Positions 15,896 to 64,000 of a stretch of 64,000 nucleotides of DNA are shown here, piece after piece. This DNA comes from Eledone cirrhosa (taxonomy: Eukaryota). The position numbers and the translations under genes are program-made. The notes beneath the pieces are model-generated. The model saw only the letters and a program-made list of their open reading frames with translations. It did not search any database and was not told the DNA's origin. Every line of letters starts with the position of its first letter. Within the stretch, counting starts at the first letter, position 1. The DNA is taken from positions 62,001 to 126,000 of the forward strand of contig CAXHJY010000608.1 of the NCBI GenBank assembly GCA_964016885.1, written 5' to 3'.

Positions 15896-15902
15896 ATATA
15901 TA

Positions 15903-20497: not shown

Positions 20498-20530
<33 letters not shown>

Positions 20531-21029
20531 CATACTTTGGGAGGGTCATGTTGCCAATAAGAAACACACGCACCAGTTGCTTTCACTTCAATTTATTATA
20601 TATTTATAAATTTATAAATCTACAAACTTATAAATTTCTGGTTGGTTGGTTGGTTCCACAACCAGATAGTTGTTTATATATAGTCATAGTCCTTTCGTCA
20701 CACACTCTGTGACCTCTTCAGTGACTGGGGATTCCTTTCCTTTGTTTCTGTGCCTTTCCTTTCTTCTATCCTACGCCATTTTGTTTCTGTGTGTGTGTTG
20801 TGTGCTCAGTTTGCGCATGCGCCACATCCGGGTGTCTGTGTGTGTTTGTGTTCATTTATCTATTTGTTTATTTATTTTATTTATTTATTGTTGGTTGGTT
20901 GTTTGTTCTATGTGTGTGTGTGTTTTCATTTTGTCCTGTGTGTGTTTTCATTTTGTTCTTAATTGTAAGTTGTTTGTTCTATGTGTGTGTGTGTTTTCAT
21001 TTTGTCCTGTGTGTGTTTTCATTTTGTCC

Positions 21030-21562
21030 TTAATTGTAAGTTGTGATGTTGCTGTTCCACTCATATTTTCTATTTAATTTTGGTTTTAATTCTTTTATGC
21101 TTACTGCCTCTGTAATTTGCCTAAACATTGCGTCTTTTCTGTGTGTGGATTCTATTTTTATTTCTATGTTCTCTAATCTACCCCTGTGTTCTATCTTAGC
21201 ATGTTGGTAGAGCACAGATGATTCTTTATTATCTTGGAGGTCTCGCCAGTGTTCATTTATTCGTTCCCCTATACTACGAGCTGTCTCACCTATGTACACT
21301 ATATTTTTGTTTCTACATTGTCCTTCTGTACATCTTATGCTATACACTACATTTCTAGTTTTACAGTTAATATGGGGGCTTATTTACAGGTTATACATTT
21401 CTTATCTATACATGAGGGTCTTTGGAACGGGTATGTCTTGCTAATAAGTGTTTTTACGGAGGTACCTGGTCTTTCTACTATCTTAATATTGAGATTATGT
21501 TTATTTAGGGCCCTTCTAAATTTGTAGGCTAGTTCGCCTCTAGGGGTTGTATTGATGAACAT
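21030..21562 (-). pseudogene. PLE C-terminus: Cys-rich linker + GIY-YIG endonuclease (Neptune/Nematis-like)
   Basis: FINTTPRGELA...IVERPG...CITCK*...NVVYSIRC..YIGETARSIGERINEH...LNRKYEW; internal stop. Confidence 0.85.
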
Positions 21563-21639
21563 TACACTCTGGTATTTATTGCTATCATACCATGAGTTTA
21601 TTCTATTGGCCTTGTTCCTAGTTCTTTCAATACAACCTC

Positions 21640-22153
21640 TAGAGGCGAACTAGCCTACAAATTTAGAAGGGCCCTAAATAAACATAATCTCAATATTAAG
21701 ATAGTAGAAAGACCAGGTACCTCCGTAAAAACACTTATTAGCAAGACATACCCGTTCCAAAGACCCTCATGTATAGATAAGAAATGTATAACCTGTAAAA
21801 TAAGCCCCCATATTAACTGTAAAACTAGAAATGTAGTGTATAGCATAAGATGTACAGAAGGACAATGTAGAAACAAAAATATAGTGTACATAGGTGAGAC
21901 AGCTCGTAGTATAGGGGAACGAATAAATGAACACTGGCGAGACCTCCAAGATAATAAAGAATCGTCTGTGCTCTACCAACATGCTAAGATAGAACACAGG
22001 GGTAGATTAGAGAACATAGAAATAAAAATAGCATCCACACACAGAAAAGACGCAATGTTTAGGCAAATTACAGAGGCAGTAAGCATAAAAGAATTAAAAC
22101 CAAAATTAAATAGAAAATATGAGTGGAACAGCAACATCACAACTTACAATTAA
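21640..22153 (+). pseudogene. PLE GIY-YIG endonuclease fragment (inverted copy)
   Basis: Same protein as the minus-strand arm, with one substitution in the 105-aa ORF (E>A). Confidence 0.85.
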
Positions 22154-22713
22154 GGACAAAATGAAAACACACACAGGACAAAATGAAAACACACACACAC
22201 ATAGAACAAACAACTTACAATTAAGAACAAAATGAAAACACACACAGGACAAAATGAAAACACACACACACATAGAACAAACAACCAACCAACAATAAAT
22301 AAATAAAATAAATAAACAAATAGATAAATGAACACAAACACACACAGACACCCGGATGTGGCGCATGCGCAAACTGAGCACACAACACACACACAGAAAC
22401 AAAATGGCGTAGGATAGAAGAAAGGAAAGGCACAGAAACAAAGGAAAGGAATCCCCAGTCACTGAAGAGGTCACAGAGTGTGTGACGAAAGGACTATGAC
22501 TATATATAAACAACTATCTGGTTGTGGAACCAACCAACCAACCAGAAATGTATAAGTTTGTAGATTTATAAATTTATAAATATATAATAAATTGAAGTGA
22601 AAGCAACTGGTGCGTGTGTTTCTTATTGGCAACATGACCCTCCCAAAGTATAACAATATCGGTTTCAACACACGATTTCAGATAAAGAATCTTGCTAAAC
22701 AAATTCAGAAACG

Positions 22714-22816
<103 letters not shown>

Positions 22817-26684: not shown

Positions 26685-26737
<53 letters not shown>
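25840..26737. repeat. Compound TA microsatellite with ~26-30-bp higher-order unit
   Basis: Recurring ATAAATATGTATATATAC. Confidence 0.9.
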
Positions 26738-26743
<6 letters not shown>

Positions 26744-27336
26744 ATACTTTGGGAGGGTCATGTTGCCAATAAGAAACACACGCACCAGTTGCTTTCACTT
26801 CAATTTAATTTATTAAATATTTATAAATTTACAAATTTATAAATTTCTGGTTGGTTGGTTGGTTCCACAACCAGATAGTTGTTTATATATATATAGTCAT
26901 AGTTCTTTCGTCACACACTCTGTGACCTCTTCAGTGACTGGGGATTTCTTTCTTCGTTTCTGTGCCTTTCCTTTCTTCTATCCTTCGCCATTTTCTATCC
27001 TTTCTATCCTACGCCATTTTTGAAAATGGCGTAGGATAGAAGAAAGGAAAGGCACAGAAACGAAGAAAGAAATCCCCAGTCACTGAAGAGGTCACAGAGT
27101 GTGTGACGAAAGAACTATGACTATATATATATAAACAACTATCTGGTTGTGGAACCAACCAACCAACCAGAAATTTATAAATTTGTAAATTTATAAATAT
27201 TTAATAAATTAAATTGAAGTGAAAGCAACTGGTGCGTGTGTTTCTTATTGGCAACTTGACCCTCCCAAAGTATAACAATATCGGTTTCAACACACGATTT
27301 CAGATAAAGAATCTTGCTAAACAAATTCAGAAACGA
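26738..27336. mobile_element. Fold-back PLE pseudo-LTR, family A
   Basis: Same structure and end points as 15903-16480; small stutter duplication at the centre (~26980-27020). Confidence 0.85.
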
Positions 27337-31680: not shown

Positions 31681-31805
31681 ATATTTATTAGGAATATATA
31701 TATATATATTAGGTATATATATATATATATATATATTAGGTATATACATATATATTATATATATATATATATATTAGGTATATACATATATATATTATAT
31801 ATATA

Positions 31806-31907
<102 letters not shown>

Positions 31908-32095
31908 ATCTGGGCCTTGATAAGTATACCCAGCCATATTACCCTAGGGAACCGAGATTTACTCTTAAGGATAATAAGGTAGACTTCATTAGTAATCCTT
32001 CTGTTAGACTCATTAGTCCTTCTAAGACTGATATAGCTATAATTAGTAAGAAAATCCTTGACCTGATTATACCAGCCGTTAGGGAAAAGGTTCAT

Positions 32096-34084: not shown

Positions 34085-34205
34085 CTGCTATATTTCCTTA
34101 TCTTTTTTGTTTAGGTTCATTTTGATTACCATCATGATTATTATTATTAGTCTTTTACAGCTTTTCGATTTTAGTTTCCATAGTCTTTTGGCTACCATAC
34201 CCTAT

Positions 34206-35954: not shown

Positions 35955-35960
35955 CATATA

Positions 35961-38900
35961 TATTCAGGTTTGAGGTTCACCACTGTATAGAGCTGGTCTA
36001 TTCCGTATGGTCAATCGTAATGCAATAATATAGAGAGTATTCAACGTAAAGCAGTTCAACCGTCTTTGTTTTTGTAGTTGGTGGTGCTATTACGGAGTTA
36101 AATATTATAATGAAATGACAGGAGGCTGGATTTGTGTAAATCCTTGAAAGATTTATTATACTATGATCATTTCAATGACCGGGTTCCGTATGAATCCGAT
36201 GATATCATCAGGTATTCGAAATATAATACGTGAATGTAATAGGTAAAATCCATGGGGCTGAAAATCGAGACCCGAGGGCGACCGCTATTCTGTTCCTTCA
36301 ACCTCAGCCGGTCGCCCTGGAGTGACGTGGCTAAAGTTTATAGTATGCTACTACCGGTCAGATAAACGAAAACAGAAAGGGATGGGAGCATAAGTTAACG
36401 TCGATCTCATGACACAAGGTAAAAGAAAGAAAGAAAGGAAGGAGAGAGAAGAAGGGGGAAGAAAGAAGAGAAGCCAGGGTTAATGTCAGCTAAAAGAAGA
36501 AAGGCAACTACTACCGGTCAGATATAGGCAAGCAAGAGGGGGAAGGAAGATAAGTCTGTGGGAGGAAGACAGGAGGAGGGGAGAAGAGAAGGAAGGGAAG
36601 AGAGAAGTAGAAAAGTAAGGGTTGATGGCTACAAGAAGGAAGATAGAAAGAAAAAGGAAGAAAGGTCGATATTAATGTCAGACCACAGTCAAGCCAGGAG
36701 TGGCGCAGAAAATGTTCACAGGGACCCGCATCTTAGCAGAGGTGAATATATTGGGAGTCAGTGTGTTACAGTGTTTAGACTTCTAGGATGAAGTTAAAAA
36801 AATAATAATCAATATTCAATATTAAAGATTTTAGAAAATTTTAAGTTCAACAGTTTAACATTTAATTATATAATAGTTCCGATTTGTTCTGTAATTTAAA
36901 GGTACTATGTGGCGCCTAAAACACCGGCCGCGCCCCGGGCCCCATGGCGAATTAAGCTACGCCGAGTATTTTCATTTACTGAAAGAAGGGGAAATTTATT
37001 TTTCCAAGCACTCCAGGTGAGCTCGTTCGCCACGGAGCTGGTCGCGCCGCCATTATAACCCACCCAACAGTCCGACAGAAAGTTGGAACTTTAAAATGTT
37101 GTTTAGAGAAGTGTGTACCCTTAGCACACGTCACTGGAATATCTCCCCCTGGGAACATAAATACCGCAACCTGAACTATATTGTATTTCTCCTGTGTCTT
37201 GAACTCTACATTTACTAGACAACGACTATTGTTTGTTTATCTATATCTTCACATCTTTGTTTGCTGTATTAATGTCTTTCCACGTACTCTACCTCTATAC
37301 ATCCATGTACTTTTTACTCCCCTTATTCGGACTTTTACTCGCGTGCACACTTAGCACACGACACAGGATTGCCCCCCCCCCCTCCCCGGGAACATAAATA
37401 CTGCAACCTGAACTATATTGTAAATTCTCCTATGTCCTGATTCCTCCATCTTACTCCAACACCACTCGTGTTGGTTTATTTACATGTTTATACCTATATA
37501 TTGATATGTTTATATATTTATACCTCTGCTGTACCAATGTGCTCTTCCACGTATACCACTTCTATGTATCCATGTATTTCTACTCCTCACATTGGGACCT
37601 GTACCCATTAGCACACGACACTAGAATGTCTCCTCATGAGAACAAAAATTAAACATTACACGACTATATCCCGTACTCTACATCCCACTAGGATAAATTA
37701 CAGATCTACATAATACAATTAACGTTTCTTCATAAAAGACTCTATTTAATAAAACCCCGCAACCCAAAACCTCATAGAAGTTATTTGAATGTTTAATCTT
37801 CAATTTTCTGTTTGTTCAATTCTCAATCTTCTTACTCCTTAGTTCTATAATGTTATTCTGAATTCTTTCAACTTCATCCGATAGAGTTAAGCAAAATTCT
37901 AAAGTTCCAACTTTTTGTCGGACCGTTGGGTGGGTTTTAGCGGCGGCGCGACCAGCTCCCTGGCGAACGGGCTCACCTGGAGTGCTTGGAAAAATAAATT
38001 TCCCCTTCTTTCGGTAAATGAAAATACTCGGCGTGGCTTAATTCGCCATGGGGCCCGGGGCGCGGCCGGTGTTTTAACCGCCAAATAGTACCTTTAAATT
38101 ACAGAACAAATCGGAACTATTAGATATGTCAACCTGAAACTGTTGAGCTTTAAATTTTCTAACCTCTTTAATATGGAATATTGATTATTAATTTTTTAAC
38201 TTCATCCTAAAAGTCTAAACATTGTAACACACTGACTCCCAATATATTCACCTCTGCTAAGATGCGAGTCCCTGTGAACATTTTTCGCGCCACTCCTGGC
38301 CCGACGGTGGTGTGACATTAATATCGACCTTCCTTCCTCTCTCTTTCTATCTTCCTTCTTGTAGCTATCAACTATTACTCTTTTACTTCTCTAAACAAAA
38401 TTTTAAAGTTCCAACTTTCTGTCGGACTGTTGGATGGGTTTTAATGACGGTGCGACCAGCTCCCTGGCGAACGAGCTCACCTGGAGTGCTTGGAAAAATA
38501 AATTTCCCCTTCTTTCAATAAATGAAAATACTCGGCGTAGCTTAATTCGCCATGTGGCCCGGGGCGCGGCCGGTGTTTTAACCGCCACATAGTACCTTTA
38601 AATTACAGAACAAATCGGAACTATTATATAATTAAATGTTAAACTGTTGAACTTTAAATTTTCTAACCTCTTTAATATTGTATATTGATTATTATTTTTT
38701 TAACTTCATCCTAGAAGTCTAAACATTGTAACACACTGACTCCCAATATATTCACCTCTGCTAAGATGCGGGTCCCTATGAACATTTTCTCGCGCCACTC
38801 CTGGCTTGACTGTGGTCTGACATTAATATCGACCTTTCTTCCTCTTTCTTTCTTTCTTCCTTCTTGTAGCCATCAACCCTTACTTTTCTACTTCTCTCTT

Positions 38901-41900
38901 CCCTTCCTTCTCTCCTCCCCTCCTCCTGTCTTCCTCCCGCAGACTTATCTTCCTTCCCCCTCTTGCTTGCCTATATCTGACCGGTAGTAGTTGCCTTTCT
39001 TCTTTTAGCTGACATTAACCCTGGCTTCTCTTCTTCTTTCTTCCCCCTTCTTCTCTCTCCTTCCTTTCTTTCTTTCTTTTACCTTGTGTCATGAGATCGA
39101 CGTTAACTTATGCTCCCATCCCTTTCTGTTTTCGTTTATCTGACCGGTAGTAGCATACTATAAACTTTAGCCACGTCACTCCAGGGCGACCGGCTGAGGT
39201 TGAAGGAACAGAATAGCGGTCGCCCTCGGGTCTCGATTTTCAGCCCCATGGATTTTACCTATTACATTCACGTATTATATTTCGAATACCTGATGATATC
39301 ACCGGATTCATACGGAACCCGGACATTGAAATGATCATAGTATAATAAATCTTTCAAGGATTTACACAAATCCAGCCTCCTGTCATTTCATTATAATATT
39401 TAACTCCGTAATAGCACCACCAACTACAAAAACAAAGACGGTTGAACTGCTTTACGTTGAGTATTCTCTATATTATTGCATTACGATTGACCATACGGAA
39501 TAGAGCAGCTCTATACAGTGGTGAACCTCAAACCTGAATAAATAATGCTCCTGAAAGTTGAGCACTTCAAAATGTAATAATCAACAGCGGCATGGGACTG
39601 AATATATCTAACCACAATTCGAACTTTGCCTACCCGGTGTTTTCGCCTGGCCCATTGCTAGTCCCCTGACAGAATATCCGAACTTCGACGAAACTCCACG
39701 GACTGGACCATAACATGTATTGTACTGCACTGTATTAACTAAATGGCTACCCTAAACTTCTGGGCATGTATAACTCACACTGAACTCCCAAACTCGAACA
39801 CACAGACTTCCACATCTATATGCATTATCTGACTGCAACTTGAACTATATTGTATTTCTCCTGCGTCTTGAACTCTCCATTTAATAGACAACGACTCTTG
39901 TTTGTTTATTTATATCTTAACATCTTTATTTGCTGTATTAATGCTCCTCCAGGTATTCTACCTCTATACATCCATGTACTTTCTACTTCCCTTATTCGGA
40001 CTTTTACTCGCGTGTACCCTTAGCACACGTCACTGGAATATCTCCCCTTGGGAACATAAATACCGCAACCTGAACTATATTGTATTTCTCCTGTGTCTTG
40101 AACTCTACATTTACTAGACAACGACTATTGTTTGTTTATCTATATCTTCACATCTTTGTTTGCTGTATTAATGTCTTTCCACGTACTCTACCTCTATACA
40201 TCCATGTACTTTTTACTCCCCTTATTCGGACTTTTACTCGCGTGCACCCTTAACACACGACACAGGATTGCCTCCCCCCCCCGGGAACATAAATACTGCA
40301 ACCTGAACTATATTGTAATTCTCCTATGTCCTGATTCCTCCATCTTACTCCAACACCACTCTTGTTGGTTTATTTACATGTTTATACCTATATATTGATA
40401 TGTTTATATATTTATACCTCTGCTGTACCAATATACTCTTCCACGTATTCCACTTCTATGTATCCATGTATTTCTACTCCTCACATTGGGACCTGTACCC
40501 ATTAGCACACGACACTAGAATGTCTCCTCCTGAGAACAAAAATTAAACATTATACGACTATATCCCGTACTCTACATCCCACTAGGATAAATTACAGATC
40601 TACATAATACAATTAACGTTTCTTCATAAAAGACTCTATTTAATTAAACCCCGCAACCCAAAACCTCATAGAGTTATTTGAATGTTTAATCTTCAATTTT
40701 CTGTTTGTTCAATTCTCAATCTTCATACTCCTTAGTTCTATAATGTTATTCTGAATTCTTTCAACTTCATCCGATAGAGTTAAGCAAAATTCTAAAGTTC
40801 CAACTTTTTGTCGGACCGTTGGGTGGGTTTTAGCGGCGGCGCGACCAGCTCCCTGGCGAACGGGCTCACCTGGAGTGCTTGGAAAAATAAATTTCCCCTT
40901 CTTTCGGTAAATGAAAATACTCGGCGTGGCTTAATTCGCCATGGGGCCCGGGGCGCGGCCGGTGATTTAACCGCCAAATAGTACCTTTAAATTACAGAAC
41001 AAATCGGAACTATTAGATATATCAACCTGAATCTGTTGAGTTTTAAATTTTCTAACCTCTTTAATATGGAATATTGATTATTAATTTTTTAACTTCATCC
41101 TATAAATCTAAACGTTGTAACACACTGACTCCCAATATATTCACCTCTGCTAAGATGCGAATCACTGTGAAAATTTTTCGCGCCACTCCTGGCCCGATGG
41201 TGGTGTGACATTAATATCGACCTTCCTTCCTCTCTCTTTCTAACTTCCTTCTTGTAGCTATCAACTATTACTCTTTTACTTCTCTAAACAAAATTTTAAA
41301 GTTCCAACTTTCTGTCGGACTGTTGGGTGGGTTTTAATGGCGGCGCGACCAGCTCCCTGGCGAACGAGCTCACCTGGAGTGCTTGAAAAAATAAATTTCC
41401 CCTTCTTTCAGTAAATGAAAATACTCGGCGTAGCTTAATTCGCCATGGGGCCCGGGGCGCAGCCGGTGTTTTAACCGACACATTGTACCTTTAAATTACA
41501 GAACAAATCGGAACTATTATATAATTAAATGTTAAACTGTTGAACTTTAAATTTTCTAACCTCTTTAATATTGAATATTGATTATTATTTTTTTAACTTC
41601 ATCCTAGAAGTCTCAACACTGTAACACACTGACTCCCAATATATTCACCTCTGCTAAGATGCGGGTCCCTGTCAACATTTTCTCGCGCCACTCCTGGCTT
41701 GACTGTGGTCTGATATTAATATCGACCTTTCTTCCTCTTTCTTTCTATCTTCCTTCTTGTAGCCATCAACCCTTACTTTTCTACTTCTCTCTTCCCTTCC
41801 TTCTCTTCTCCCCTCCTCCTGTCTTCCTCCCGCAGACTTATCTTCCTTCCCCTCTTGCTTGCCTATATCTGACCGGTAGTAGTTGCCTTTCTTCTTTTAG

Positions 41901-42290
41901 CTGACATTAACCCTGGCTTCTCTTCTTCTTTCTTCCCCCTTCTTCTCTCTCCTTCCTTTCTTTCTTTCTTTTACCTCGTGTCATGAGATCGACGTTAACT
42001 TATGCTCCCATCCCTTTCTGTTTTCGTTTATCTGACCGGTAGTAACATACTTTAAACTTTAGCCACGTCATTCCAGGGCCACCGGCTGAGGTTGAAGGAA
42101 CAGAATAGCGGTCGCCCTCGGTTCTCGATTTTCAGCCCCATGGATTTTACCTATTACATTCACGTATTATATTTCGAATACCTGATGATATCACCGGATT
42201 CATACGGAACCCGGTCATTGAAATGATCATAGTATAATAAACCTTTCAAGGATTTACACAAATCCAGCCTCCTGTCATTTCATTATAATA
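35961..42290. mobile_element. Non-coding HHR element J: inverted 1.15-kb arm + ~1.8 tandem copies of a ~2.89-kb unit
   Basis: 35961-37110 is the reverse complement of ~38385-39540; HHR cores at 39290 and 42182 (offset 2892); internal ~504-bp and ~230-bp duplications; no protein homology seen. Confidence 0.85.
39286..39343 (+). ncRNA. Minimal type I hammerhead (family J; copies 42178-42235 +, 36158-36215 -)
   Basis: atac-CTGATGA-tatcaccgg..ccggacatt-GAAA-tgatca-TA-gtat; palindromic helix III. Confidence 0.8.
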
Positions 42291-42295
42291 TATAC

Positions 42296-42983: not shown

Positions 42984-43629
<646 letters not shown>

Positions 43630-44029: not shown

Positions 44030-45065
44030 AACTTTGAATAACTTTGAAATGTTTTGGCCAGTATTGGCCCAGGCCATGTCTAACTTAATAGCACCACCTG
44101 GCGACGTCTTTCAATTCAGGATTTGGGCACCATGGCCCATTCGAGAAGAGAATTACTGTTTGCGGAGACATATCCGGGTGTAGGTGGTTTGTCCGGGATT
44201 ACTTGGAGGAATTTGTCCAAAGACTTCTTGAATTTTGTGTGGTCAGTTTCTGTTTTGACGTGTCCTGGTGTGATGTTGAAGACAGCAGGGCCGATTGAGG
44301 TGAAATAATTGTGCCGTATTGTTGTTATGAGTTGCGATTTAGATTTTTGAATGGGACGGATTGCACGGGTCCCAAGCCTTGGGTGTATCTTGAAGGCGAT
44401 GCCAACATCATTTGGGCAGTGATGATGGAACATTTTCCACATTATGCAGATAATATAACGCTCACGGCGACGTTGGAGTGAGTAAAGTTTCAGATATTCT
44501 AGTCGACCCCAGTAGTCAAGGTCTGACATGCCATCTATCTTTTTCGTGATTGCCCTTTGAGGAGCTTCAAGTTTCATGATACTTTGTTTCGTGTGGGGAG
44601 ACCACAGTGGACAACAGTATTCAAGGTGTGGTCGGGCAAAAGTAGAGAAGAGAAGGATAATGGTGTGGGAATCTCCCGACTGGAAGGTTCTGAGGATCCA
44701 GGAACACATTCTGCGAGCCATGTCAACTTTGCTGCTTATATGCGTGGCCCAGCGTATGTTGCTGTCCACGGTTACTCCCAAGTCTCTGATGTTGTTAGAT
44801 GCCACGAGAGTTCCCCGGAGGGAAGGGAGTACGGGAGTTTCAGAGCATCCTCTTTTCCAAAGTGGATCAGTTCGAATTTGTCTTCGTTCAGTAACATGTT
44901 GTTCTTTTCCACCCATTGGGTAACAGCCAGTAGGTCTGACTGAAGGCTTATCCGGTCATCCACGCCATTGATGACCTTTTGGAGCTTGGAATCATCAGCG
45001 AAAATTGTAATGTTGCTGTGTTTGATGATGTCAGTGATGTCATTAATATAGATGATGAAGAACAT
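44030..45065 (-). pseudogene. 5'-truncated CR1/L2-clade LINE with short tandem 3' tail
   Basis: FIIYINDI..IFADDSKL; RDLGVTVD..WILRTF..RPHLEYCCPLWSP..YSLQRRRERY; tail (AACTTTGAAT)2. Confidence 0.9.
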
Positions 45066-48199: not shown

Positions 48200-50492
48200 A
48201 ATGAAAAATTTGAACAGGAACAAAACAGAGAGCAGTACGAATCGTAATTAATTTCACGCTCTGGATAGTGGGTGGTGGCAGGGAACGACGTTTCGGGCAT
48301 AAGCCCTTCCTCAGGTGAGAAGTGTGTGGGAACAGAGTTCAAAGGGTGTGTAGGGGAGTGGTGGAGAGACATATAGCGAAAAAAAACGGTGCGAATGAAA
48401 TTAAAAATAAAAGTAAAAATAAAGCATGATCAAAATACAAGGAATGAAATAAAATGAAATATAAAAGCATGATCAAAATAAACTGAAATTAAAAAGGGGT
48501 AAAACAGGTGGTGGAAGGGTGTGGGGTGTGTAGGGGTGGTGGCGGGTGGAGTGGGGAGAGGGAGACGGGGTGTCCGAGCGGGGAGGGCTGAAGGTGGTGT
48601 GTGTGTGTAGGTGTACGTGTGTGTGTGTGTATGTGAAACTAAGGGTTGGGGGAAGAACGGGATTACATGTTCAGGAAGTGGTGTGTGCGTGGGGGGGGGG
48701 GTTGTAGGTCGGAATGTCAGTGCGTTTGTGGATAGAGGGATGGGGGGAGAGGAATCAGGAGGCTTAGGGTGTAAATATGTGGTGGAAAGCACGTGTGTGT
48801 GGGGGGTTTAAGCGTGTTGTGGGTGTAGGTGGCGTGTGGGAGAAAAAAATTGTTTGTGTGTGTGTGTGTGGGTGAGTTATATAGGTGATTCCGTAAGAGG
48901 ATGGTTGAAATGTTGGTAAGTTCCTATGATGTTTAGTGGACTCTGTGGTGGTCAAGTTCCGCCTACGAGTATACCATGAAGAGATGTTCGGAAGAGGAGA
49001 GATGTGGGGTGCGCGCGCAACAGGAAGTGGTCAAGCGGTGGGAGTACTGTGTGTCTGTTTGTGCTGGGAGGTGGTCAGTGGGCATAGCAGGAGTCGGTGG
49101 AATGGTAAAAGGGCGAGAATGGGTAGGTGTGAAAGTTGGAATGAGGCGGGTGTGTGTGTGTATTAGTAGAGGTGTTAGTGGGATGAGTGAGTGTGGGGCG
49201 AGGATGTGGGTGGAGCGGGAAGAGAAGGGTGTGTGTAGTTCTATGGAGGGAGTGTGGTGTACTGGTGTGTGTGTAGTTTGATGAAGGGGGTGTTAGTGGG
49301 TGTTAGTATACGGGAGGTGGGGAAGAGTTGAATGCAGATGTGTGAGGGTTAGTGGTGGTAGGATGAGTAGAGTTGGTGCGTGTGTTCGTGTGCTTGGGGT
49401 TAGGGGGCGTTAATGAGGTTAGTTGCGGGGTGGTGGGATGGAGGTGTGGAGGTGAGGGTTAGTGGTGGTAGTAGTGTTTGTGTTTAGTGTGAGCGCGTGT
49501 ATACATGTACCGGTGGGTGTGTGCGTGTGATAAGGAGGGGGTATTTAGGAGTAGAAGGGAGGGATGTTAGTTTGTTAGTTGGCGAAGGGTGGTCGGATGT
49601 GGGGGGGGGGTGAAAATGAGGGGTGTGTTAGTGGTGTTAGTGGGGGATAAGTGTGGGGGAGGGGGCGGTCGAAGGCTAAAGGAATAAGGGTGGGGAGTTC
49701 AGGCCGGGGGGGAGTGTGGGTCTGTAAGATGAAGATAGTTCTTTGTTCGACTCTAAGGCGATTGGCGGTTGTTCCGTGGCATTGGAGTAGACCACAGACT
49801 GTGAGATGGCGTGCGTAATGTCCAGGGCCACCAAAGTGGCGGGCGATGGCGGAACTACCACCGAGACGAATATCCCGGAGGTGCTCAGTGAATCGGTCCG
49901 CCAGGTGACGTCCCGTCTGTCCGACATAAGTCGCGCTGCGCGTAGACTAGGTTGAAGGTACTGCAGCGGAAGGCATGCCGGACAGAGAGAGAGTGGCCAT
50001 TGGGACCCTGGAAGGTGGTGGTGTTGGTGATGTGGGGACAGGTCTTGCAGCAGGGCCTAGAACAGGGAAAGGAACCGGGGGGGGGGAACAGAGCGTGGGT
50101 TGGGGCATAGGGAGCTGTGGACGAGGAGGGTGCGAAGATTGCGTGCGCGTTTGAATGAGGGGAGTGGTGGGGTTGCGAAGATGTGGAAGGTGGAGGGGTC
50201 GGACTGGAGGTGTTGGAAGAGGCGGCGGATGGTGCGGTGGAGGGGTAAGGTGGAGGTGTGGTAGGTGATGGGGAAGGGGAGACGGTGGGTGGGTGTGCGG
50301 TGGCGTGGGGTGAGGGTGGTGGAGCGGTGGACAGCACGGGCGCGGGTGAGAGCGGTGTGGACAAGAGAGGGGGGTAACCTCTGCGGATGAAATGGCTGAC
50401 TAGGGAAAGGGCCTGGGACTCGAAGTCAGCAGCTCGGCTACAGAGGCTGCGGATCCTGAGGAGTTGGGAGTAGGGAATGGAGTGTTTAGTGT

Positions 50493-51289: not shown

Positions 51290-51998
51290 TTAGTTCACTT
51301 TGCTGCACTGGGTGGTTGCCGGAATTGTGCCCGGGATGGAAACCTTTATTGTTTATTTCGTGGTAGTCTCTTTAGTATTTTGGCCCCTTTTGTTAACCCG
51401 TCACCGTATCATTTACGTACTTATACCTCTTAAAAGGGTCCTCGCCTATTTCGTCCCACCTAGTTCTTTTACTTATTTCGTTATTTCTTTATTTCTTTCT
51501 TTACTTCTTTCTTTCTTTCTTTATTTATTTTTTCTAGACTAACAATAGCTACAGACCTAGGTCGTAGAATTTAATTTACTTTACTTTTTTCTTTACACTT
51601 ATTAGTTTTTCTTTACACTTATTTGCTTTTCTTCACTCTCAGTATTATTTCTACCCCCCCCCCCCCATTCTTCTACCTACCGTTCCGACTCCCCCCTCCC
51701 CCCCCCCCCTCCCCTGTATCTTCTTTGACCTCATGCCCAGCTGTAGCTGGCACTACAAACGCTTGATTGGGGCTACTCCACCCCCTCCCCTCTTTCTCCT
51801 ACTAGCAGGTTTAGCCACCATCTCCCCTACTAATTTGCAACCACAGAATTACTACTGAATTTTGACAATCACTTTGACCATATATGGAATTACCCCTTGA
51901 GAAGATCGGCTATTTAAATACCAGGATAAATTTTCATTTAGTCCAGAATTAGCCGTCGAAACGGCTTGAGCTCAGCTGTCGGGGTCTTACTGGTTCCT
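51290..51998 (+). mobile_element. Non-coding 3' part of family C element
   Basis: Island in TA tract ending ~13 nt after a complete HHR. Confidence 0.65.
51892..51985 (+). ncRNA. Full type I hammerhead with U3-A8 core (family C)
   Basis: acccc-TTGAGAA-gatcggcta...tagccgtc-GAAA-cggc ttgagctca gctg-TC-ggggt. Confidence 0.8.
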
Positions 51999-52144
51999 AT
52001 ATATATATTATCTATATATGTATATATTATCTATATATATATATATATATTATCTATATATATATAATATCTATATATATATATATCTATATATATTATC
52101 TATATATATATATATATATATTATCTATATATATATATATATAT

Positions 52145-52180
<36 letters not shown>

Positions 52181-52444
52181 CTATATATATATATATCTCT
52201 ATATATATATATATATTATCTATATATGTATATATTATCTATATATATATATATATATATATATTATCTATATATATATATATATAATCTAGATATATAT
52301 ATATTATATATATATATATTATTTATATATATATATATATATATTAACTATATATATATATATTATCTATCTATATATATATATATATATATATATTATT
52401 TATATATATATTTATATATATTATCTATATATCTATATATATAT

Positions 52445-55400
52445 TAAAAACAAATAACGAAACGAAATTAAATTTTGTTTCATTTGTAACTCACTTTTGT
52501 ATGACTGACGCTTAAACAATTAAGTTAAAGATGTACATCCATATATGTATACTGAAATACTAGTATGTATATGAATACACACACGTATACATATGTAGAT
52601 GTACCAAGTTTTTTCACTGGTCACTTTACTGTGAGTGGCCAGCTATTCTGTATGTAAACACACAGACAAACCGGTTTTTAGAGTCATACTGGTTTTTGAG
52701 GAAACACCTTTCCTCTATTCTCTAGAAAGCCAGACAAGGAATATTGAACTAGTTTCGTTGTTGTTACAACTCATCAGCAATATTTACCTATCTTCCGGCC
52801 TCTCTAGAGAATCGTAAAAGCACATATCGTTATATGCTTTTTGTATGAAAATTAGTAGTGGGCATACTAATTTGCATAGAGTGTGAGTAAGTACCGGTTC
52901 AACGGAGACGATAAAAACAAATAACGAAACGAAATTAAATTTTGTTTCATTTGTAACTCACTTTTGTATGACTGACGCTTAAACAATTAAGTTAAATATG
53001 TACATCCATATATGTATACTGAAATACTAGTATGTATATGAATACACACACGTATACATATGTAGATGTACCAAGTTTTTTCACTGGTCACTTTACTGTG
53101 AGTGGCCAGCTATTCTGTATGTAAACACACAGACAAACCGGTTTTTAGAGTCATACTGGTTTTTGAGGAAACACCTTTCCTCTATTCTCTAGAAAGCCAG
53201 ACAAGGAATATTGAACTAGTTTCGTTGTTGTTACAACTCATCAGCAATATTTACCTATCTTCCGGCCTCTCTAGAGAATCGTAAAAGCACATATCGTTAT
53301 ATGCTTTTTGTATGAAAATTAGTAGTGGGCATACTAATTTGCATAGAGTGTGAGTAAGTACCGGTTCAACGGAGACGATAAAAACAAATAACGAAACGAA
53401 ATTAAATTTTGTTTCATTTGTAACTCACTTTTGTATGACTGACGCTTAAACAATTAAGTTAAAGATGTACATCCATATATGTATACTGAAATACTAGTAT
53501 GTATATGAATACACACACGTATACATATGTAGATGTACCAAGTTTTTTCACTGGTCACTTTACTGTGAGTGGCCAGCTATTCTGTATGTAAACACACAGA
53601 CAAACCGGTTTTTAGAGTCATACTGGTTTTTGAGGAAACACCTTTCCTCTATTCTCTAGAAAGCCAGACAAGGAATATTGAACTAGTTTCGTTGTTGTTA
53701 CAACTCATCAGCAATATTTACCTATCTTCCGGCCTCTCTAGAGAATCGTAAAAGCACATATCGTTATATGCTTTTTGTATGAAAATTAGTAGTGGGCATA
53801 CTAATTTGCATAGAGTGTGAGTAAGTACCGGTTCAACGGAGACGATAAAAACAAATAACGAAACGAAATTAAATTTTGTTTCATTTGTAACTCACTTTTG
53901 TATGACTGACGCTTAAACAATTAAGTTAAAGATGTACATCCATATATGTATACTGAAATACTAGTATGTATATGAATACACACACGTATACATATGTAGA
54001 TGTACCAAGTTTTTTCACTGGTCACTTTACTGTGAGTGGCCAGCTATTCTGTATGTAAACACACAGACAAACCGGTTTTTAGAGTCATACTGGTTTTTGA
54101 GGAAACACCTTTCCTCTATTCTCTAGAAAGCCAGACAAGGAATATTGAACTAGTTTCGTTGTTGTTACAACTCATCAGCAATATTTACCTATCTTCCGGC
54201 CTCTCTAGAGAATCGTAAAAGCACATATCGTTATATGCTTTTTGTATGAAAATTAGTAGTGGGCATACTAATTTGCATAGAGTGTGAGTAAGTACCGGTT
54301 CAACGGAGACGATAAAAACAAATAACGAAACGAAATTAAATTTTGTTTCATTTGTAACTCACTTTTGTATGACTGACGCTTAAACAATTAAGTTAAAGGT
54401 GTACATCCATATATGTATACTGAAATACTAGTATGTATATGAATACACACACGTATACATATGTAGATGTACCAAGTTTTTTCACTGGTCACTTTACTGT
54501 GAGTGGCCAGCTATTCTGTATGTAAACACACAGACAAACCGGTTTTTAGAGTCATACTGGTTTTTGAGGAAACACCTTTCCTCTATTCTCTAGAAAGCCA
54601 GACAAGGAATATTGAACTAGTTTCGTTGTTGTTACAACTCATCAGCAATATTTACCTATCTTCCGGCCTCTCTAGAGAATCGTAAAAGCACATATCGTTA
54701 TATGCTTTTTGTATGAAAATTAGTAGTGGGCATACTAATTTGCATAGAGTGTGAGTAAGTACCGGTTCAACGGAGACGATAAAAACAAATAACGAAACGA
54801 AATTAAATTTTGTTTCATTTGTAACTCACTTTTGTATGACTGACGCTTAAACAATTAAGTTAAAGATGTACATCCATATATGTATACTGAAATACTAGTA
54901 TGTATATGAATACACACACGTATACATATGTATACATAGATAGGTAAATATTGCTGATGAGTTGTAACAACAACGAAACTAGTTCAATATTCCTTGTCTG
55001 GCTTTCTAGAGAATAGAGGAAAGGTGTTTCCTCAAAAACCAGTATGACTCTAAAAACCGGTTTGTCTGTGTGTTTACATACAGAATAGCTGGCCACTCAC
55101 AGTAAAGTGACCAGTGAAAAAACTTGGTACATCTACATATGTATACGTGTGTGTATTCATATACATACTAGTATTTCAGTATACATATATGGATGTACAT
55201 CTTTAACTTAATTGTTTAAGCGTCAGTCATACAAAAGTGAGTTACAAATGAAACAAAATTTAATTTCGTTTCGTTATTTGTTTTTATCGTCTCCGTTGAA
55301 CCGGTACTTACTCACACTCTATGCAAATTAGTATGCCCACTACTAATTTTCATACAAAAAGCATATAACGATATGTGCTTTTACGATTCTCTAGAGAGGC

Positions 55401-58400
55401 CGGAAGATAGGTAAATATTGCTGATGAGTTGTAACAACAACGAAACTAGTTCAATATTCCTTGTCTGGCTTTCTAGAGAATAGAGGAAAGGTGTTTCCTC
55501 AAAAACCAGTATGACTCTAAAAACCGGTTTGTCTGTGTGTTTACATACAGAATAGCTGGCCACTCACAGTAAAGTGACCAGTGAAAAAACTTGGTACATC
55601 TACATATGTATACGTGTGTGTATTCATATACATACTAGTATTTCAGTATACATATATGGATGTACATCTTTAACTTAATTGTTTAAGCGTCAGTCATACA
55701 AAAGTGAGTTACAAATGAAACAAAATTTAATTTCGTTTCGTTATTTGTTTTTATCGTCTCCGTTGAACCGGTACTTACTCACACTCTATGCAAATTAGTA
55801 TGCCCACTACTAATTTTCATACAAAAAGCATATAACGATATGTGCTTTTACGATTCTCTAGAGAGGCCGGAAGATAGGTAAATATTGCTGATGAGTTGTA
55901 ACAACAACGAAACTAGTTCAATATTCCTTGTCTGGCTTTCTAGAGAATAGAGGAAAGGTGTTTCCTCAAAAACCAGTATGACTCTAAAAACCGGTTTGTC
56001 TGTGTGTTTACATACAGAATAGCTGGCCACTCACAGTAAAGTGACCAGTGAAAAAACTTGGTACATCTACATATGTATACGTGTGTGTATTCATATACAT
56101 ACTAGTATTTCAGTATACATATATGGATGTACATCTTTAACTTAATTGTTTAAGCGTCAGTCATACAAAAGTGAGTTACAAATGAAACAAAATTTAATTT
56201 CGTTTCGTTATTTGTTTTTATCGTCTCCGTTGAACCGGTACTTACTCACACTCTATGCAAATTAGTATGCCCACTACTAATTTTCATACAAAAAGCATAT
56301 AACGATATGTGCTTTTACGATTCTCTAGAGAGGCCGGAAGATAGGTAAATATTGCTGATGAGTTGTAACAACAACGAAACTAGTTCAATATTCCTTGTCT
56401 GGCTTTCTAGAGAATAGAGGAAAGGTGTTTCCTCAAAAACCAGTATGACTCTAAAAACCGGTTTGTCTGTGTGTTTACATACAGAATAGCTGGCCACTCA
56501 CAGTAAAGTGACCAGTGAAAAAACTTGGTACATCTACATATGTATACGTGTGTGTATTCATATACATACTAGTATTTCAGTATACATATATGGATGTACA
56601 TCTTTAACTTAATTGTTTAAGCGTCAGTCATACAAAAGTGAGTTACAAATGAAACAAAATTTAATTTCGTTTCGTTATTTGTTTTTATCGTCTCCGTTGA
56701 ACCGGTACTTACTCACACTCTATGCAAATTAGTATGCCCACTACTAATTTTCATACAAAAAGCATATAACGATATGTGCTTTTACGATTCTCTAGAGAGG
56801 CCGGAAGATAGGTAAATATTGCTGATGAGTTGTAACAACAACGAAACTAGTTCAATATTCCTTGTCTGGCTTTCTAGAGAATAGAGGAAAGGTGTTTCCT
56901 CAAAAACCAGTATGACTCTAAAAACCGGTTTGTCTGTGTGTTTACATACAGAATAGCTGGCCACTCACAGTAAAGTGACCAGTGAAAAAACTTGGTACAT
57001 CTACATATGTATACGTGTGTGTATTCATATACATACTAGTATTTCAGTATACATATATGGATGTACATCTTTAACTTAATTGTTTAAGCGTCAGTCATAC
57101 AAAAGTGAGTTACAAATGAAACAAAATTTAATTTCGTTTCGTTATTTGTTTTTATCGTCTCCGTTGAACCGGTACTTACTCACACTCTATGCAAATTAGT
57201 ATGCCCACTACTAATTTTCATACAAAAAGCATATAACGATATGTGCTTTTACGATTCTCTAGAGAGGCCGGAAGATAGGTAAATATTGCTGATGAGTTGT
57301 AACAACAACGAAACTAGTTCAATATTCCTTGTCTGGCTTTCTAGAGAATAGAGGAAAGGTGTTTCCTCAAAAACCAGTATGACTCTAAAAACCGGTTTGT
57401 CTGTGTGTTTACATACAGAATAGCTGGCCACTCACAGTAAAGTGACCAGTGAAAAAACTTGGTACATCTACATATGTATACGTGTGTGTATTCATATACA
57501 TACTAGTATTTCAGTATACATATATGGATGTACATCTTTAACTTAATTGTTTAAGCGTCAGTCATACAAAAGTGAGTTACAAATGAAACAAAATTTAATT
57601 TCGTTTCGTTATTTGTTTTTATCGTCTCCGTTGAACCGGTACTTACTCACACTCTATGCAAATTAGTATGCCCACTACTAATTTTCATACAAAAAGCATA
57701 TAACGATATGTGCTTTTACGATTCTCTAGAGAGGCCGGAAGATAGGTAAATATTGCTGATGAGTTGTAACAACAACGAAACTAGTTCAATATTCCTTGTC
57801 TGGCTTTCTAGAGAATAGAGGAAAGGTGTTTCCTCAAAAACCAGTATGACTCTAAAAACCGGTTTGTCTGTGTGTTTACATACAGAATAGCTGGCCACTC
57901 ACAGTAAAGTGACCAGTGAAAAAACTTGGTACATCTACATATGTATACGTGTGTGTATTCATATACATACTAGTATTTCAGTATACATATATGGATGTAC
58001 ATCTTTAACTTAATTGTTTAAGCGTCAGTCATACAAAAGTGAGTTACAAATGAAACAAAATTTAATTTCGTTTCGTTATTTGTTTTTATCGTCTCCGTTG
58101 AACCGGTACTTACTCACACTCTATGCAAATTAGTATGCCCACTACTAATTTTCATACAAAAAGCATATAACGATATGTGCTTTTACGATTCTCTAGAGAG
58201 GCCGGAAGATAGGTAAATATTGCTGATGAGTTGTAACAACAACGAAACTAGTTCAATATTCCTTGTCTGGCTTTCTAGAGAATAGAGGAAAGGTGTTTCC
58301 TCAAAAACCAGTATGACTCTAAAAACCGGTTTGTCTGTGTGTTTACATACAGAATAGCTGGCCACTCACAGTAAAGTGACCAGTGAAAAAACTTGGTACA

Positions 58401-59885
58401 TCTACATATGTATACGTGTGTGTATTCATATACATACTAGTATTTCAGTATACATATATGGATGTACATCTTTAACTTAATTGTTTAAGCGTCAGTCATA
58501 CAAAAGTGAGTTACAAATGAAACAAAATTTAATTTCGTTTCGTTATTTGTTTTTATCGTCTCCGTTGAACCGGTACTTACTCACACTCTATGCAAATTAG
58601 TATGCCCACTACTAATTTTCATACAAAAAGCATATAACGATATGTGCTTTTACGATTCTCTAGAGAGGCCGGAAGATAGGTAAATATTGCTGATGAGTTG
58701 TAACAACAACGAAACTAGTTCAATATTCCTTGTCTGGCTTTCTAGAGAATAGAGGAAAGGTGTTTCCTCAAAAACCAGTATGACTCTAAAAACCGGTTTG
58801 TCTGTGTGTTTACATACAGAATAGCTGGCCACTCACAGTAAAGTGACCAGTGAAAAAACTTGGTACATCTACATATGTATACGTGTGTGTATTCATATAC
58901 ATACTAGTATTTCAGTATACATATATGGATGTACATCTTTAACTTAATTGTTTAAGCGTCAGTCATACAAAAGTGAGTTACAAATGAAACAAAATTTAAT
59001 TTCGTTTCGTTATTTGTTTTTATCGTCTCCGTTGAACCGGTACTTACTCACACTCTATGCAAATTAGTATGCCCACTACTAATTTTCATACAAAAAGCAT
59101 ATAACGATATGTGCTTTTACGATTCTCTAGAGAGGCCGGAAGATAGGTAAATATTGCTGATGAGTTGTAACAACAACGAAACTAGTTCAATATTCCTTGT
59201 CTGGCTTTATAGAGAATAGAGGAAAGGTGTTTCCTCAAAAACCAGTATGACTCTAAAAACCGGTTTGTCTGTGTGTTTACATACAGAATAGCTGGCCACT
59301 CACAGTAAAGTGACCAGTGAAAAAACTTGGTACATCTACATATGTATACGTGTGTGTATTCATATACATACTAGTATTTCAGTATACATATATGGATGTA
59401 CATCTTTAACTTAATTGTTTAAGCGTCAGTCATACAAAAGTGAGTTACAAATGAAACAAAATTTAATTTCGTTTCGTTATTTGTTTTTATCGTCTCCGTT
59501 GAACCGGTACTTACTCACACTCTATGCAAATTAGTATGCCCACTACTAATTTTCATACAAAAAGCATATAACGATATGTGCTTTTACGATTCTCTAGAGA
59601 GGCCGGAAGATAGGTAAATATTGCTGATGAGTTGTAACAACAACGAAACTAGTTCAATATTCCTTGTCTGGCTTTCTAGAGAATAGAGGAAAGGTGTTTC
59701 CTCAAAAACCAGTATGACTCTAAAAACCGGTTTGTCTGTGTGTTTACATACAGAATAGCTGGCCACTCACAGTAAAGTGACCAGTGAAAAAACTTGGTAC
59801 ATCTACATATGTATACGTGTGTGTATTCATATACATACTAGTATTTCAGTATACATATATGGATGTACATCTTTAACTTAATTGT
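52445..59885. mobile_element. Retrozyme-like tandem array L: 467-bp units, ~5.3 copies inverted against ~10.6 copies
   Basis: Exact 467 period (ORF track offsets); inversion junction 54932-54938; one HHR per unit (5 on -, 11 on +); TA flanks. Confidence 0.92.
55414..55458 (+). ncRNA. Minimal type I hammerhead of the 467-bp unit (representative; first copies 52740-52784 -, 54947-54991 +)
   Basis: aatattg-CTGATGA-gttg taacaa caac-GAAA-ctag-TT-caatatt; canonical core, palindromic helix III AACTAGTT. Confidence 0.9.
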
Positions 59886-60185
59886 ATATATATATTTATA
59901 TATATATATTATCAATATATCTATATATATTTATATATATATAATCTATATATCTTTATATCTATATATATATATATATATATATATTATCAATATATAT
60001 CTCTATATATATATGTATATATAATCTATATATCTATATATATATAATATATATATCTATATATATATTATCTTTATATATATCTATATATATCTATATA
60101 TATCTATATATTATCAATATATATATATTATCAATGTATATATATATATCTATATATATATATATATATATTATCAATGTATATA

Positions 60186-60220
<35 letters not shown>

Positions 60221-60225
60221 TATCA

Positions 60226-60298
<73 letters not shown>

Positions 60299-60361
60299 CT
60301 ATATATATATATAAATATATATATATATTATCTGTATATATATATATATTATCTCTCTCTC

Positions 60362-60485
<124 letters not shown>

Positions 60486-60642
60486 CTATAAATATATATA
60501 TATATCTATATATGCAAAGTTTTATTTAAATTGTTGGGTTACAACGAGTAAATATTTATAACTGATATAAAAGCACTCAACAAGTATTTGGAGTATATTT
60601 ACGATATTAAATAAATGGAAACTATATTTATAAAACCATATT

Positions 60643-62058: not shown

Positions 62059-64000
62059 TTACATTTTAAATTTATATTTATATTTAAAAGTTGAGTTCAA
62101 TCTATGTCTGCAGCAAGTGAATAAATTTGTTCGTAAATTAAGGGAATTTTTAGATTTTAGTATAAAGAATATCTCCTCCGCACAGAGGTCACATGTCTCA
62201 GAGGATGAATTAAAAGGAATCCCTCTTGAGACTATATTCCAAGCCGTCGAATATCCAACGTTATCATGCTTAAGTTGCCAGAGTAAGCCTGATAGTGATG
62301 TTGAAGATTTTTTGCTTGGATCTGTGAAAGAATTCTTGTGGTTATTATAGCGAAGTTTAAATTCTGTCGAGGTGGAACCAACATAGTTAAAATAATTTAA
62401 GTCCGTTTTAACATTACAGTTGTATATTATATTTTTAACTAAGCAATTGTTATTTAACGGACATTTAGATCTATCTCTACAGTTACATTTGTTTACTTGG
62501 ATATTATTTATGCTATTATCGCTAGGTTTTAAATTCCTATTATTTATTCTATTAATATTTTGTGCTAAATTTTTGGTGGATGAGTAAGTTAATTTTATAG
62601 TATGTCTATTGAAAATTGAGTGATACCTATGTGTTCTAGGGAAGCGATTATCAAGAGCATTAAAAAAATAGTTTAGCGATGTGGGTTTTAATGTTTAGTG
62701 AAAAAGGGGGGGCAAACCATATTATATTCCTAGTTCTATTTCTTTTTTGGCTTTTGGAATTATTGTAATGCTTTCTATTATAGTTTTTAAAGTTGTTGCC
62801 GTAATTAAAATTGTTGTTATTTTGGTTAGTTTGTCTATTATTATCTATGTACATAATTGTATCACTATATCCTGCTCTAGCTAACGCTTCATTGTAATAC
62901 TGGGCTTTTTCGTCGAAAATCTTTTTATTAGATGAGATTCTAGAGATACGTTTTTGAACAGAGTTTACTATAGTATTTTTAACAGATCTGGGGTGGTTAG
63001 AGTTAAAGCTGACATAGTTTAAGTTTTCATTCAACTTGTGAAATGGATAGTGAAGACATGTGTTGAGATTTAATGTTACATCTAGGAAATTGACTATTCT
63101 ATGGTTATTCTCAATTTCTATTTTTAGATTAAAATAATTAAAAAATTGTGTAATTTGTTTTCTTTTTCTATTTAGTTCAGAGTTATTATTTTCAATAAGT
63201 AAAAGCATGTCATCTCTATATAAACCTCCGGTAGCACCGGGTATTTTCCTATGCAGAGAATTGATTATAAATAGGCCCACAAGGTCAGTTACCTGAGCTG
63301 AGTCGGATGATCCCATAGTAATGTCGAAATTGTTATCTCTATCTGCTCTGGTCCATAGTTGGTCATTAAATTCTATCAATGTTTTCCTAGCCGATAATAT
63401 AATGTGCATTTCATTGCTAGTTAGGTCTGTATATTTGAATGCGTAATTTTGTGCCTTATTTAGTAGATTAGGGGTAATAGATGAATAATAGTTAGCTATA
63501 TCTAGTTGAATACATTTATTATTATTGTTATATTTTATTTCTTTAAACCACTCAATAACCTCTCCAGTTCCCTTCCACAAGCTCAAGGTAGGTAAACAAT
63601 TCAAGTTTTTAATTTGCTGTATCACCCTGTCTAGAATGTTTTTGATTAGTTTACCCAGGTCAGATTTTGATGGTGCAATCAATCTGACTGGCAGGTCATT
63701 TTCAAAATTTCTTTTATGATCTTTCATATTGATCTTCGGTTTCCTGGGCACGAAAGGTTGTGTTCTGTTCTCAATTTCCAACTCATCCATTATACAAGAT
63801 GCCTCAACATTCATTTTCTCAAGCTCAGCCTTATCTGCTACCTTGTACTTTTTCCTCAGTTCTTTCAGTATGAGGCCATTATACATGTCTTGTTGCACTC
63901 CATAGAGGTTGTTGGTCTTGTCAGATTTCACCAAGATCTTCTCAGTTTTCTCTAAGCTCTCAATATTATCCTTAATGCCTTTCAGATATTCCTGGCCTTT
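62059..64000 (-). CDS. PLE RT + GIY-YIG ORF (YRDD type); runs off the window; one frameshift in a T7 run
   Basis: KSDKT..KDHK..VRLI..QLDIANYY..MGSSDSAQVTDLVG..GGLYRDD..VNFLDV; removing one T at ~62665 continues in frame through CNCRDRSKCPL..NIIY..YVGST..CDLC..CCRH to TAA at 62059. Confidence 0.88.

Follow-up and report, generated by a model that had tools for sequence, protein, structure and literature searches.

A young hammerhead retrozyme insertion in Eledone cirrhosa is built of two divergent concatemer arms with one fixed site per end

Introduction

Retrozymes that lack long terminal repeats (non-LTR retrozymes) were defined by Cervera and de la Pena (2020; PMC7229834), who hypothesised that the reverse transcriptase (RT) of Penelope-like elements (PLEs) produces tandem cDNA from circular RNAs, and a preprint by Li et al. 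(10.64898/2026.07.22.740005) links these retrozymes to pseudo-long terminal repeats (pLTRs) and favours local amplification. The stretch of DNA analysed here, hereafter the window, comprises 64,000 nt of the genome of Eledone cirrhosa (assembly GCA_964016885.1, contig CAXHJY010000608.1, positions 62,001 to 126,000) and contains an array of 467-bp hammerhead units that is a non-LTR retrozyme, a young and ordinary member of this known class. As in the animal non-LTR retrozymes presented in the available text of both sources, its units are tandem and non-coding with one type I hammerhead each, a GC content of about 34% and a circle predicted to be highly paired, and it shares with them the short palindromic helix III and the co-occurrence with PLEs. 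The unit of 467 nt is longer than the 170-400 nt given in PMC7229834 and falls within the 51-972 bp of the preprint. Divergent arms, two fixed priming sites, targeting of (TA)n and a 12-nt duplication are features of the present element that are not described for animal non-LTR retrozymes in the available text of these sources; the words 'inverted', 'rolling' and 'microsatellite' are absent from the main text of PMC7229834, and 'tail' and any relevant mention of 'invert' from the available text of the preprint.

Similar anatomy is found among the PLEs themselves, for which Craig et al. (2021; PMC8557442) describe inverted truncated copies, a one-sided tail ascribed to endonuclease resolution, and a bias towards microsatellites, the cause of the structures being left undefined. 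With the endonuclease-bearing (EN+) PLEs of that paper the retrozyme shares an inverted copy beside the 5' end, a tail at one end and a microsatellite bias, which in Naiads includes (TA)n; it differs in lacking an open reading frame (ORF), in having multi-turn concatemers as both arms, and in a tail of 72 nt compared to 30-40. The same source presents MRC1 and other non-autonomous Chlamys elements as PLE passengers with multicopy head-to-tail insertions, much as here, although these belong to green algae and to PLEs with an N-terminal EN and no canonical hammerheads, and inverted multimer arms are not described for them in its available text. The Poseidon protein PAc was shown in vitro to cut and extend both strands at AT-rich DNA, with two internal starts that bound the tail and a predicted dimer (Frangieh et al. 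2024; PMC11167929). In that assay the strands did not differ in their start, whereas in this family each end has its own site in 67 of 73 junctions; the terms 'circular', 'TSD' and 'retrozyme' are absent from that source.

Retrozymes, their hypothesised rolling-circle copying, and the inverted copies and tail of PLEs are therefore known separately, and what is new is a coupled footprint of two sites, one template and many turns. In twin priming of L1, both target ends prime on one RNA and leave a 5' inversion inside a single target duplication, and the resulting pieces are adjacent and non-overlapping, whereas the retrozyme arms overlap fully. In a mostly non-subscription literature, neither inverted insertions of retrozymes nor a coupling of their start sites was the subject of any paper found, and older Penelope papers (cited in PMC8557442) may describe the tail-bearing end.

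Architecture of the array

Tandem Repeats Finder reports a period of 467 in two arrays across the element, and exact comparison gives 5.33 + 10.60 = 15.9 units with 16 CUGAUGA cores, every one intact, and three substitutions only (Table 1). A preliminary description of this DNA had named the same unit length, about 16 units and the same three sites, and in this it was accurate; its reading of the array as a single concatemer fails, since the left arm is the reverse complement of the unit in the right arm and the two diverge from a central junction. Five hammerheads lie on the minus strand of the left arm, which carries the substitutions at 52997 and 54399, and 11 lie on the plus strand of the right arm, which carries that at 59209. 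The 5' ends of the arms meet centrally across a 5-nt insert that duplicates letters 10 nt upstream in the left arm, probably a local slip or a templated fill-in, and the 3' ends point outward into (TA)n runs. With unit positions numbered from 54938, these outer ends lie at site A (unit ~278) and site B (unit ~350). The left 12-nt copy of the target-site duplication lies where the (TA)n run 51998-52444 ends and has its last base in common with the element end. As the same 12-mer recurs on the far side, the whole inverted structure is one insertion, which bears out the recent single insertion that had been proposed.

The array has a GC content of 0.34 and no LTR, and no stop-to-stop frame of at least 120 amino acids lies inside it, so that it lacks the RT and GIY-YIG ORF of an autonomous PLE. 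It has the marks of a PLE passenger, namely an inverted 5'-truncated copy, a tail at one end and an AT-rich target.

Table 1. Coordinates of the retrozyme array and of the PLE-W1 element within the window
Feature	Position	Strand	Remark
PLE-W1, truncated autonomous-type PLE	20524..22716		GIY-YIG end 21596-22153; hammerhead-like motif 22462
Left target-site duplication copy, 12 nt	52434..52445		same 12-mer on both sides
Left arm, 5.33 units	52445..54932	-	3' end at site B (unit 349); 5' end at unit 197
Central junction, 5-nt insert	54933..54937		from exact comparison of the arms
Right arm, 10.60 units	54938..59885	+	5' end at unit 1; 3' end at site A (unit 278)
One type I hammerhead	54947..54991	+	core CUGAUGA at 54954; recurs each 467 nt
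72-nt A-to-B stretch of one unit	55216..55287	+	counterpart of the PLE 'tail'; imperfect hairpin just 5' of B
Right target-site duplication copy, 12 nt	59885..59896		opens the (TA)n run 59885-60513

The two-end rule and the target site

The same layout was examined at 90 loci, comprising the window with 29 best-hit loci, 20 loci found by their B end and 40 found by their A end. The best-hit sample is skewed to long, young arrays; the B-end loci were taken in order along C1, minus those with a known A end nearby, and the A-end loci in the same order, minus those already sampled. An A end was taken as unit 272-283 and a B end as unit 342-351. Inverted junctions numbered 73, in 72 of the 90 loci, and 67 of them pair an A end with a B end (62 directly and 5 after the sequence was extended), leaving one A/A, no B/B and five other pairs. 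Because the other two samples were picked by one end, the best-hit sample is the fair test of this rule, and there 22 of the 23 classifiable loci are A/B (p 3e-6 against 50:50). At the 18 loci that lack a junction there is one arm alone, a foreign arm or a stub only a few bases long. Inner 5' ends are scattered across the entire unit; permuted copy ends had been expected in the preliminary description, and it is solely these inner ends that vary, the outer 3' ends being fixed.

Twenty-six junctions were mapped exactly and show overlaps of 1-3 nt (13), flush joints (2) or inserts of 2-31 nt (11), while the 5' end of one arm abuts the 3' end of the other in 7 of 73 junctions, compared to about 9.7 by chance. 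The A arm is the longer in 24 loci and the B arm in 33, which argues that neither arm was copied from the other. Insertion takes place in (TA)n at a cut staggered by about 12 nt: (TA)4 stands on both sides in 55 of 59 A/B loci, and among the 16 of these 59 that are informative, having flanks that break the TA alternation, 12 show target duplications of 11-13 nt. Shuffled flank pairs gave a mean duplication of 1.6 and a maximum of 5, with 0 of 500 reaching 12; a looser test, made before this anchored one, was weak (17 against 9-16). Contigs of the public run X1 have loose ends that enter (TA)n at units 281 and 350 (55218 and 55287 in the unit of Table 1), evidence that is method-independent at best, since X1 may be the source sample.

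A shared template and the length of the arms

Both arms of a locus appear to descend from one template. Where each arm spans at least one unit, the majority haplotype is common to both in 17 of 18 loci, compared to 20 of 306 cross-locus pairs, and mean arm divergence over 56 loci is 0.0030 within and 0.0340 between loci. Among 20 loci of at least 5 units, 7 carry alleles (12 in all) that are fixed in every unit of both arms and fixed in no other sampled locus, which implies a monomer-sized bottleneck followed by multiplication. Single-unit alleles, in turn, are absent from the other arm in 90 of 99 testable cases.

The predicted cleavage site is crossed by 112 of 146 arms, in 363 passes, and stops within unit 43-53 (5 against 3.3 expected) and indels there (4 in 354 passes) show no excess, which disfavours a cleaved linear RNA as template. 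A cluster of stops at unit 255-265 (13 against 3.9) was chosen after scanning 467 windows, includes short A arms, and is not relied on. The longest arms reach 10.2, 13.7 and about 14.3 kb, an apparent 6-kb ceiling having vanished once longer sequence was examined, and identical monomers make up 17/19, 15/16, 12/12 and 6/6 of the units in long arms. Median arm length in the two position-ordered sets is 469 and 588 nt. Since long arms are near-uniform while these medians are so short, arm length must be regenerated, and RT rolling on its template explains both the near-uniform long arms and the typical arm of about one unit.

The family across the genome

A DNA search of the 3.0-Gb genome returned 307 matches, from 38 scored of 258 candidates. 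Exact patterns, the counts of which are lower bounds, recovered at least 9,265 hammerheads (reversed-pattern control 0) and at least 2,058 B-type ends followed by (TA)n (control 0), in keeping with the dispersed copies that had been anticipated. An older subfamily, 86-88% alike (L057, L059, L061, L062, L064, L066), has a GUC site and an A-U replacing a U-A pair in helix II; in the youngest subfamily the site is GUU. Members of a sister family with about 70% likeness (L028:6414-6525, L029:349-460, L032, L035, L094-L096) have a GUA site and a helix II that a U-U pair closes; they end at the position aligned with B and in one case at that aligned with A. An excess of B ends was considered as a product of an autonomous PLE, a candidate that was rejected, all 20 loci sampled being retrozyme relatives. 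Head-to-tail unit joints, expected of tandem DNA and of a circle alike, occur in the contigs of each of four public runs, and no strand-change joint stands among those listed. Runs X4-X6 show the unit at low depth, to which no weight is given.

The hammerhead and the fold of the unit

The hammerhead is of type I, with a helix I of 7 bp plus a long extension, a helix II of 5 bp and a 2-bp helix III capped by a 2-nt loop within the 8-nt palindrome AACUAGUU. Its GUU site predicts a cut at unit 47|48, which in the copy of Table 1 lies between 54984 and 54985. GUU is a less favoured hammerhead site than GUC. Rfam Hammerhead_HH9 matches the motif with an E value of 5.3e-8 and 37.7 bits, below the gathering score of 52, and at the gathering threshold Rfam finds nothing in the whole 64-kb window. 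The minimum free energy (MFE) fold of the circular unit reaches -140.8 kcal/mol with 66% of bases paired (z -10, with no equal in stability among 100 shuffles); the fold of the antisense strand is good too (z -6.5), and the A-B region folded alone is no better than shuffles (z 0.36). These are the hammerhead search and circular fold that the preliminary description had put forward as checks, and the outcome favours it: the extended helix I and the four hairpins that it listed are all present in the circular MFE fold. What it called a canonical minimal hammerhead with palindromic helix III is upheld as a hammerhead of type I whose helix III is short and palindromic. The label 'min-HHR', for minimal hammerhead ribozyme, does not fit, since PMC4209133 defines the min-HHRs of PLE pLTRs by the absence of helix III and loop 3, a long helix II and a short helix I. 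The build seen here is, according to the same source, that of a canonical hammerhead that works as a dimer and cleaves in multimers rather than in monomer circles. A dimer-dependent hammerhead had also been proposed, and the predicted anatomy agrees: in a free cofold of two molecules, the palindromes pair intermolecularly.

In a set of 18 sequences (11 of the retrozyme family and 7 of the sister family), 8 of 22 named pairs of the hammerhead are changed on both sides, and 93.7% of cells are paired, compared to 32-50% with slid partners. Cleavage of the retrozyme RNA by its hammerhead would be expected from this anatomy. The CUGAUGAG core is present on one polarity of the unit only and the unit exists as genomic DNA, so that neither ribozymes on both polarities nor the lack of a DNA form, as in viroid-type agents, applies to it.

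Penelope-like elements in the window

A PLE in this genome, PLE-W1, generates the same layout as the retrozyme. The copy in the window has an inverted left arm, with its two ends 57 nt apart just inside the start of the ORF, and its GIY-YIG end is recognised by Pfam (E 1.2e-4); Pfam gave no match to the full ORF, the atlas look-alikes of which carry HTH_animal, GIY-YIG or RVT_1. Among 38,896 candidates, 150 scored copies are 98-100% identical, with stop-free frames of up to 1,280 amino acids bearing an RT motif. Of its 14 divergent end pairs, one of them counted twice, 13 combine both ends and the exception runs on into the tail, and two informative pairs show target duplications of 11 and 12 nt. 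The motifs of PLE-W1 presumably resemble those of the Nematis clade. Its pLTR is not homologous to the retrozyme unit (best BLAST E 0.07), and the foreign arms described below come from several families, for which reasons it is a candidate partner and an unproven one. Locus L045, in which a PLE-W1 stub is joined to a retrozyme arm, was likewise rejected as decisive evidence of partnership, given the varied origin of the other foreign arms.

Other parts of the window hold relatives of these elements. Short PLE-W1 insertions at 15901-16479, 26737-27336 and 43081-43507 consist of two inverted terminal arms only, one per end type, in (TA)n. A similar layout is found at 35957-42294, between (TA)n runs, where an inverted left arm (35957-37112) is followed by a partial tandem with a period of ~2.9 kb and 97% likeness; it has no long ORF, its two ends differ by ~140 nt, and it may be a PLE passenger of larger, non-autonomous type. 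A further PLE-like family, in which a nuclease-like region is C-terminal, has left remnants at 31778-35297, 23202-23810 and 62059-62694, and Pfam gave no match to the three pieces of it that were scanned; the last remnant carries a hammerhead-like motif at 60700 (minus) and runs out in the (TA)n run of the array. At 51895-51997 a recurrent terminus (22 copies, 18 loci) adjoins the left (TA)n run, so that one microsatellite is common to three different elements. Of the segments 49575-50425, 44116-44955, 30727-31278 and 19782-20273, one is taken to be a GIY-YIG-like remnant similar to Neptune PLEs and the other three to be fragments of LINE-like RTs.

Proposed mechanism and alternative explanations

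The element is probably a non-autonomous hammerhead retroelement copied by a paired Penelope-like RT/GIY-YIG protein. Multimeric transcripts would self-cleave through dimeric hammerheads and the monomers would then be ligated; in the monomer circle the single hammerhead would be inactive because its helix III has just a 2-nt loop. Once the target has been cut, each of the two freed 3' ends would start reverse transcription on the same RNA, at A in one case and at B in the other, 72 nt apart. Confidence is high in this two-strand priming on one RNA, and the monomer circle is more likely than not the usual template. Each RT would circle the template for a variable number of turns, and the two cDNA ends would be joined centrally by 0-3 nt of microhomology or a short patch, giving two divergent concatemer arms of a single haplotype. 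Opinion is evenly poised on a more specific proposal, in which a PLE RT-endonuclease dimer would grip one circular RNA by the 72-nt element, with one fixed start for each strand of the 12-nt staggered cut, and its two active sites would both roll on that circle for up to ~30 turns; this would also explain the inverted copies and one-sided tails of PLEs generally. Rolling-circle copying by a PLE enzyme had been suggested in the preliminary description and is the best reading, if an unproven one, the two fixed priming sites and the inversion having been missed.

Several observations weigh against this mechanism. Neither the terminus catalogue (823 kb) nor a profile of families 1 and 2 over the sampled loci, together less than 0.05% of the genome, yielded a PLE whose terminus is homologous to A or B, and assignment of the copying to a PLE enzyme is indirect for this reason. 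Among the runs that contain the unit (6 runs of unrecorded kind, 4 studies) none is listed as an RNA run, and the covariation of the hammerhead represents few events, because most changes fall between the two families. The strands are alike in start site in the PAc assay (PMC11167929). In only 44 of 56 loci is an arm matched best, or equally well, by its own partner. Left arms of foreign origin, drawn from several different elements, occupy 6 of the 40 A-anchored loci and L045, so that cis coupling is not absolute or deletions fuse neighbours; in the chimeras L096, L103, L107, L095, L118 and L045 a retrozyme arm adjoins family 2, a third small hammerhead repeat or the ends of four different PLE-like families, and they arose by either template switching or deletion between neighbours. 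Minor alleles occur in both arms in 9 of 99 testable cases, in 3 of 22 loci: at L040 (with L129 and L134) a substitution at unit 465 appears once per arm, at unit index 13 in A and 14 in B, which a monomer circle does not predict, and L031 and L110 also carry minor alleles in both arms. The 14.3-kb arm of L054 holds 11 distinct monomers of 18, with recurring alleles, and the variant units repeated in L054, L031 and L047 suggest local expansion or mixed templates. The L040 sharing and these repeated variants point to multimer templates or later local expansion in a minority of loci.

The leading alternative is that the same two-strand priming at A and B took place on a transcript of a uniform source array that was either long and linear or a multimeric circle, with no rolling on a monomer, a possibility judged unlikely though by no means negligible. 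The minor alleles shared by both arms fit it directly, as does the GUU site with its lower preference than GUC. Further points in its favour are that uncleaved RNA was the dominant substrate in the PLE assay (PMC11167929), that multimeric retrozyme RNAs occur in axolotl (PMC7229834), and that 8 of 9 Xenopus dimers were uncleaved in vitro (10.64898/2026.07.22.740005). Transcripts of up to 29 units would, however, have to survive dimer-competent hammerheads; most testable single-unit alleles are unshared, array-wide locus-specific alleles would still need a monomer bottleneck, and with median arms of about one unit the arrays would shrink every generation. That short insertions expand in situ by unequal crossing-over, as the preprint (10.64898/2026.07.22.740005) proposes, their uniformity reflecting concerted evolution, is quite improbable, even if the blocks of repeated variant units in L054, L031 and L047 are what it would produce. 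Minor alleles present in at least two units (19 of 62) are confined to these three of 20 loci, minor alleles of the other 17 being singletons, only 0-3 variants are found across the 14-20 units of several of the longest loci, whose ends are intact, and the inverted arms would have to grow separately while keeping a single haplotype.

There is little probability that concatemers were built by an RT that reached the 5' end of a cleaved linear monomer and then jumped to another monomer at its 3' end, for which neither the stops nor the indels at the cut site provide the excess that would be expected, and 25 of 43 loci of at least 3 units have no minor allele in common with another locus; the mosaic loci L024, L031 and L047, which switch haplotype in intervals that include the cut site, and the switching or fusion seen in chimeras with family 2 and other elements are nevertheless as it would predict. 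An assembly artefact, by fold-back or collapsed reads, or a DNA inversion after insertion is the least credible explanation and is hardly to be entertained: the window does lie on a 155-kb contig, no single read was seen across the array and error correction could flatten units, but the layout recurs at 72 loci, many on contigs of more than 100 Mb, with unequal arm lengths, different fixed ends, unmirrored flanks and intact target duplications, and the X1 contigs, from what may be the source sample, enter (TA)n at the same two sites.

Significance

The inversion and the two fixed priming sites make the anatomy of the insertion the most informative feature of this locus. For PLEs, whose tandem and inverted structures and one-sided tail have no defined mechanism in PMC8557442, the rule of one site per end and the 12-nt stagger, displayed by thousands of young insertions, make the question testable. 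For retrozymes, the hypothesis that they are written from circles (PMC7229834) gains genomic evidence from the arm haplotype shared within loci and from the absence of excess stops at the cut site. A small RNA with two mapped starts and a known target is a ready in vitro substrate, and genome engineering might make use of a pair of RTs able to write a circular RNA many times over into a double-strand cut. Transcription reading through such a locus would yield a long hairpin RNA that may trigger silencing. If the proposed reading is true, each of these insertions would be a genomic record of twin rolling-circle reverse transcription.

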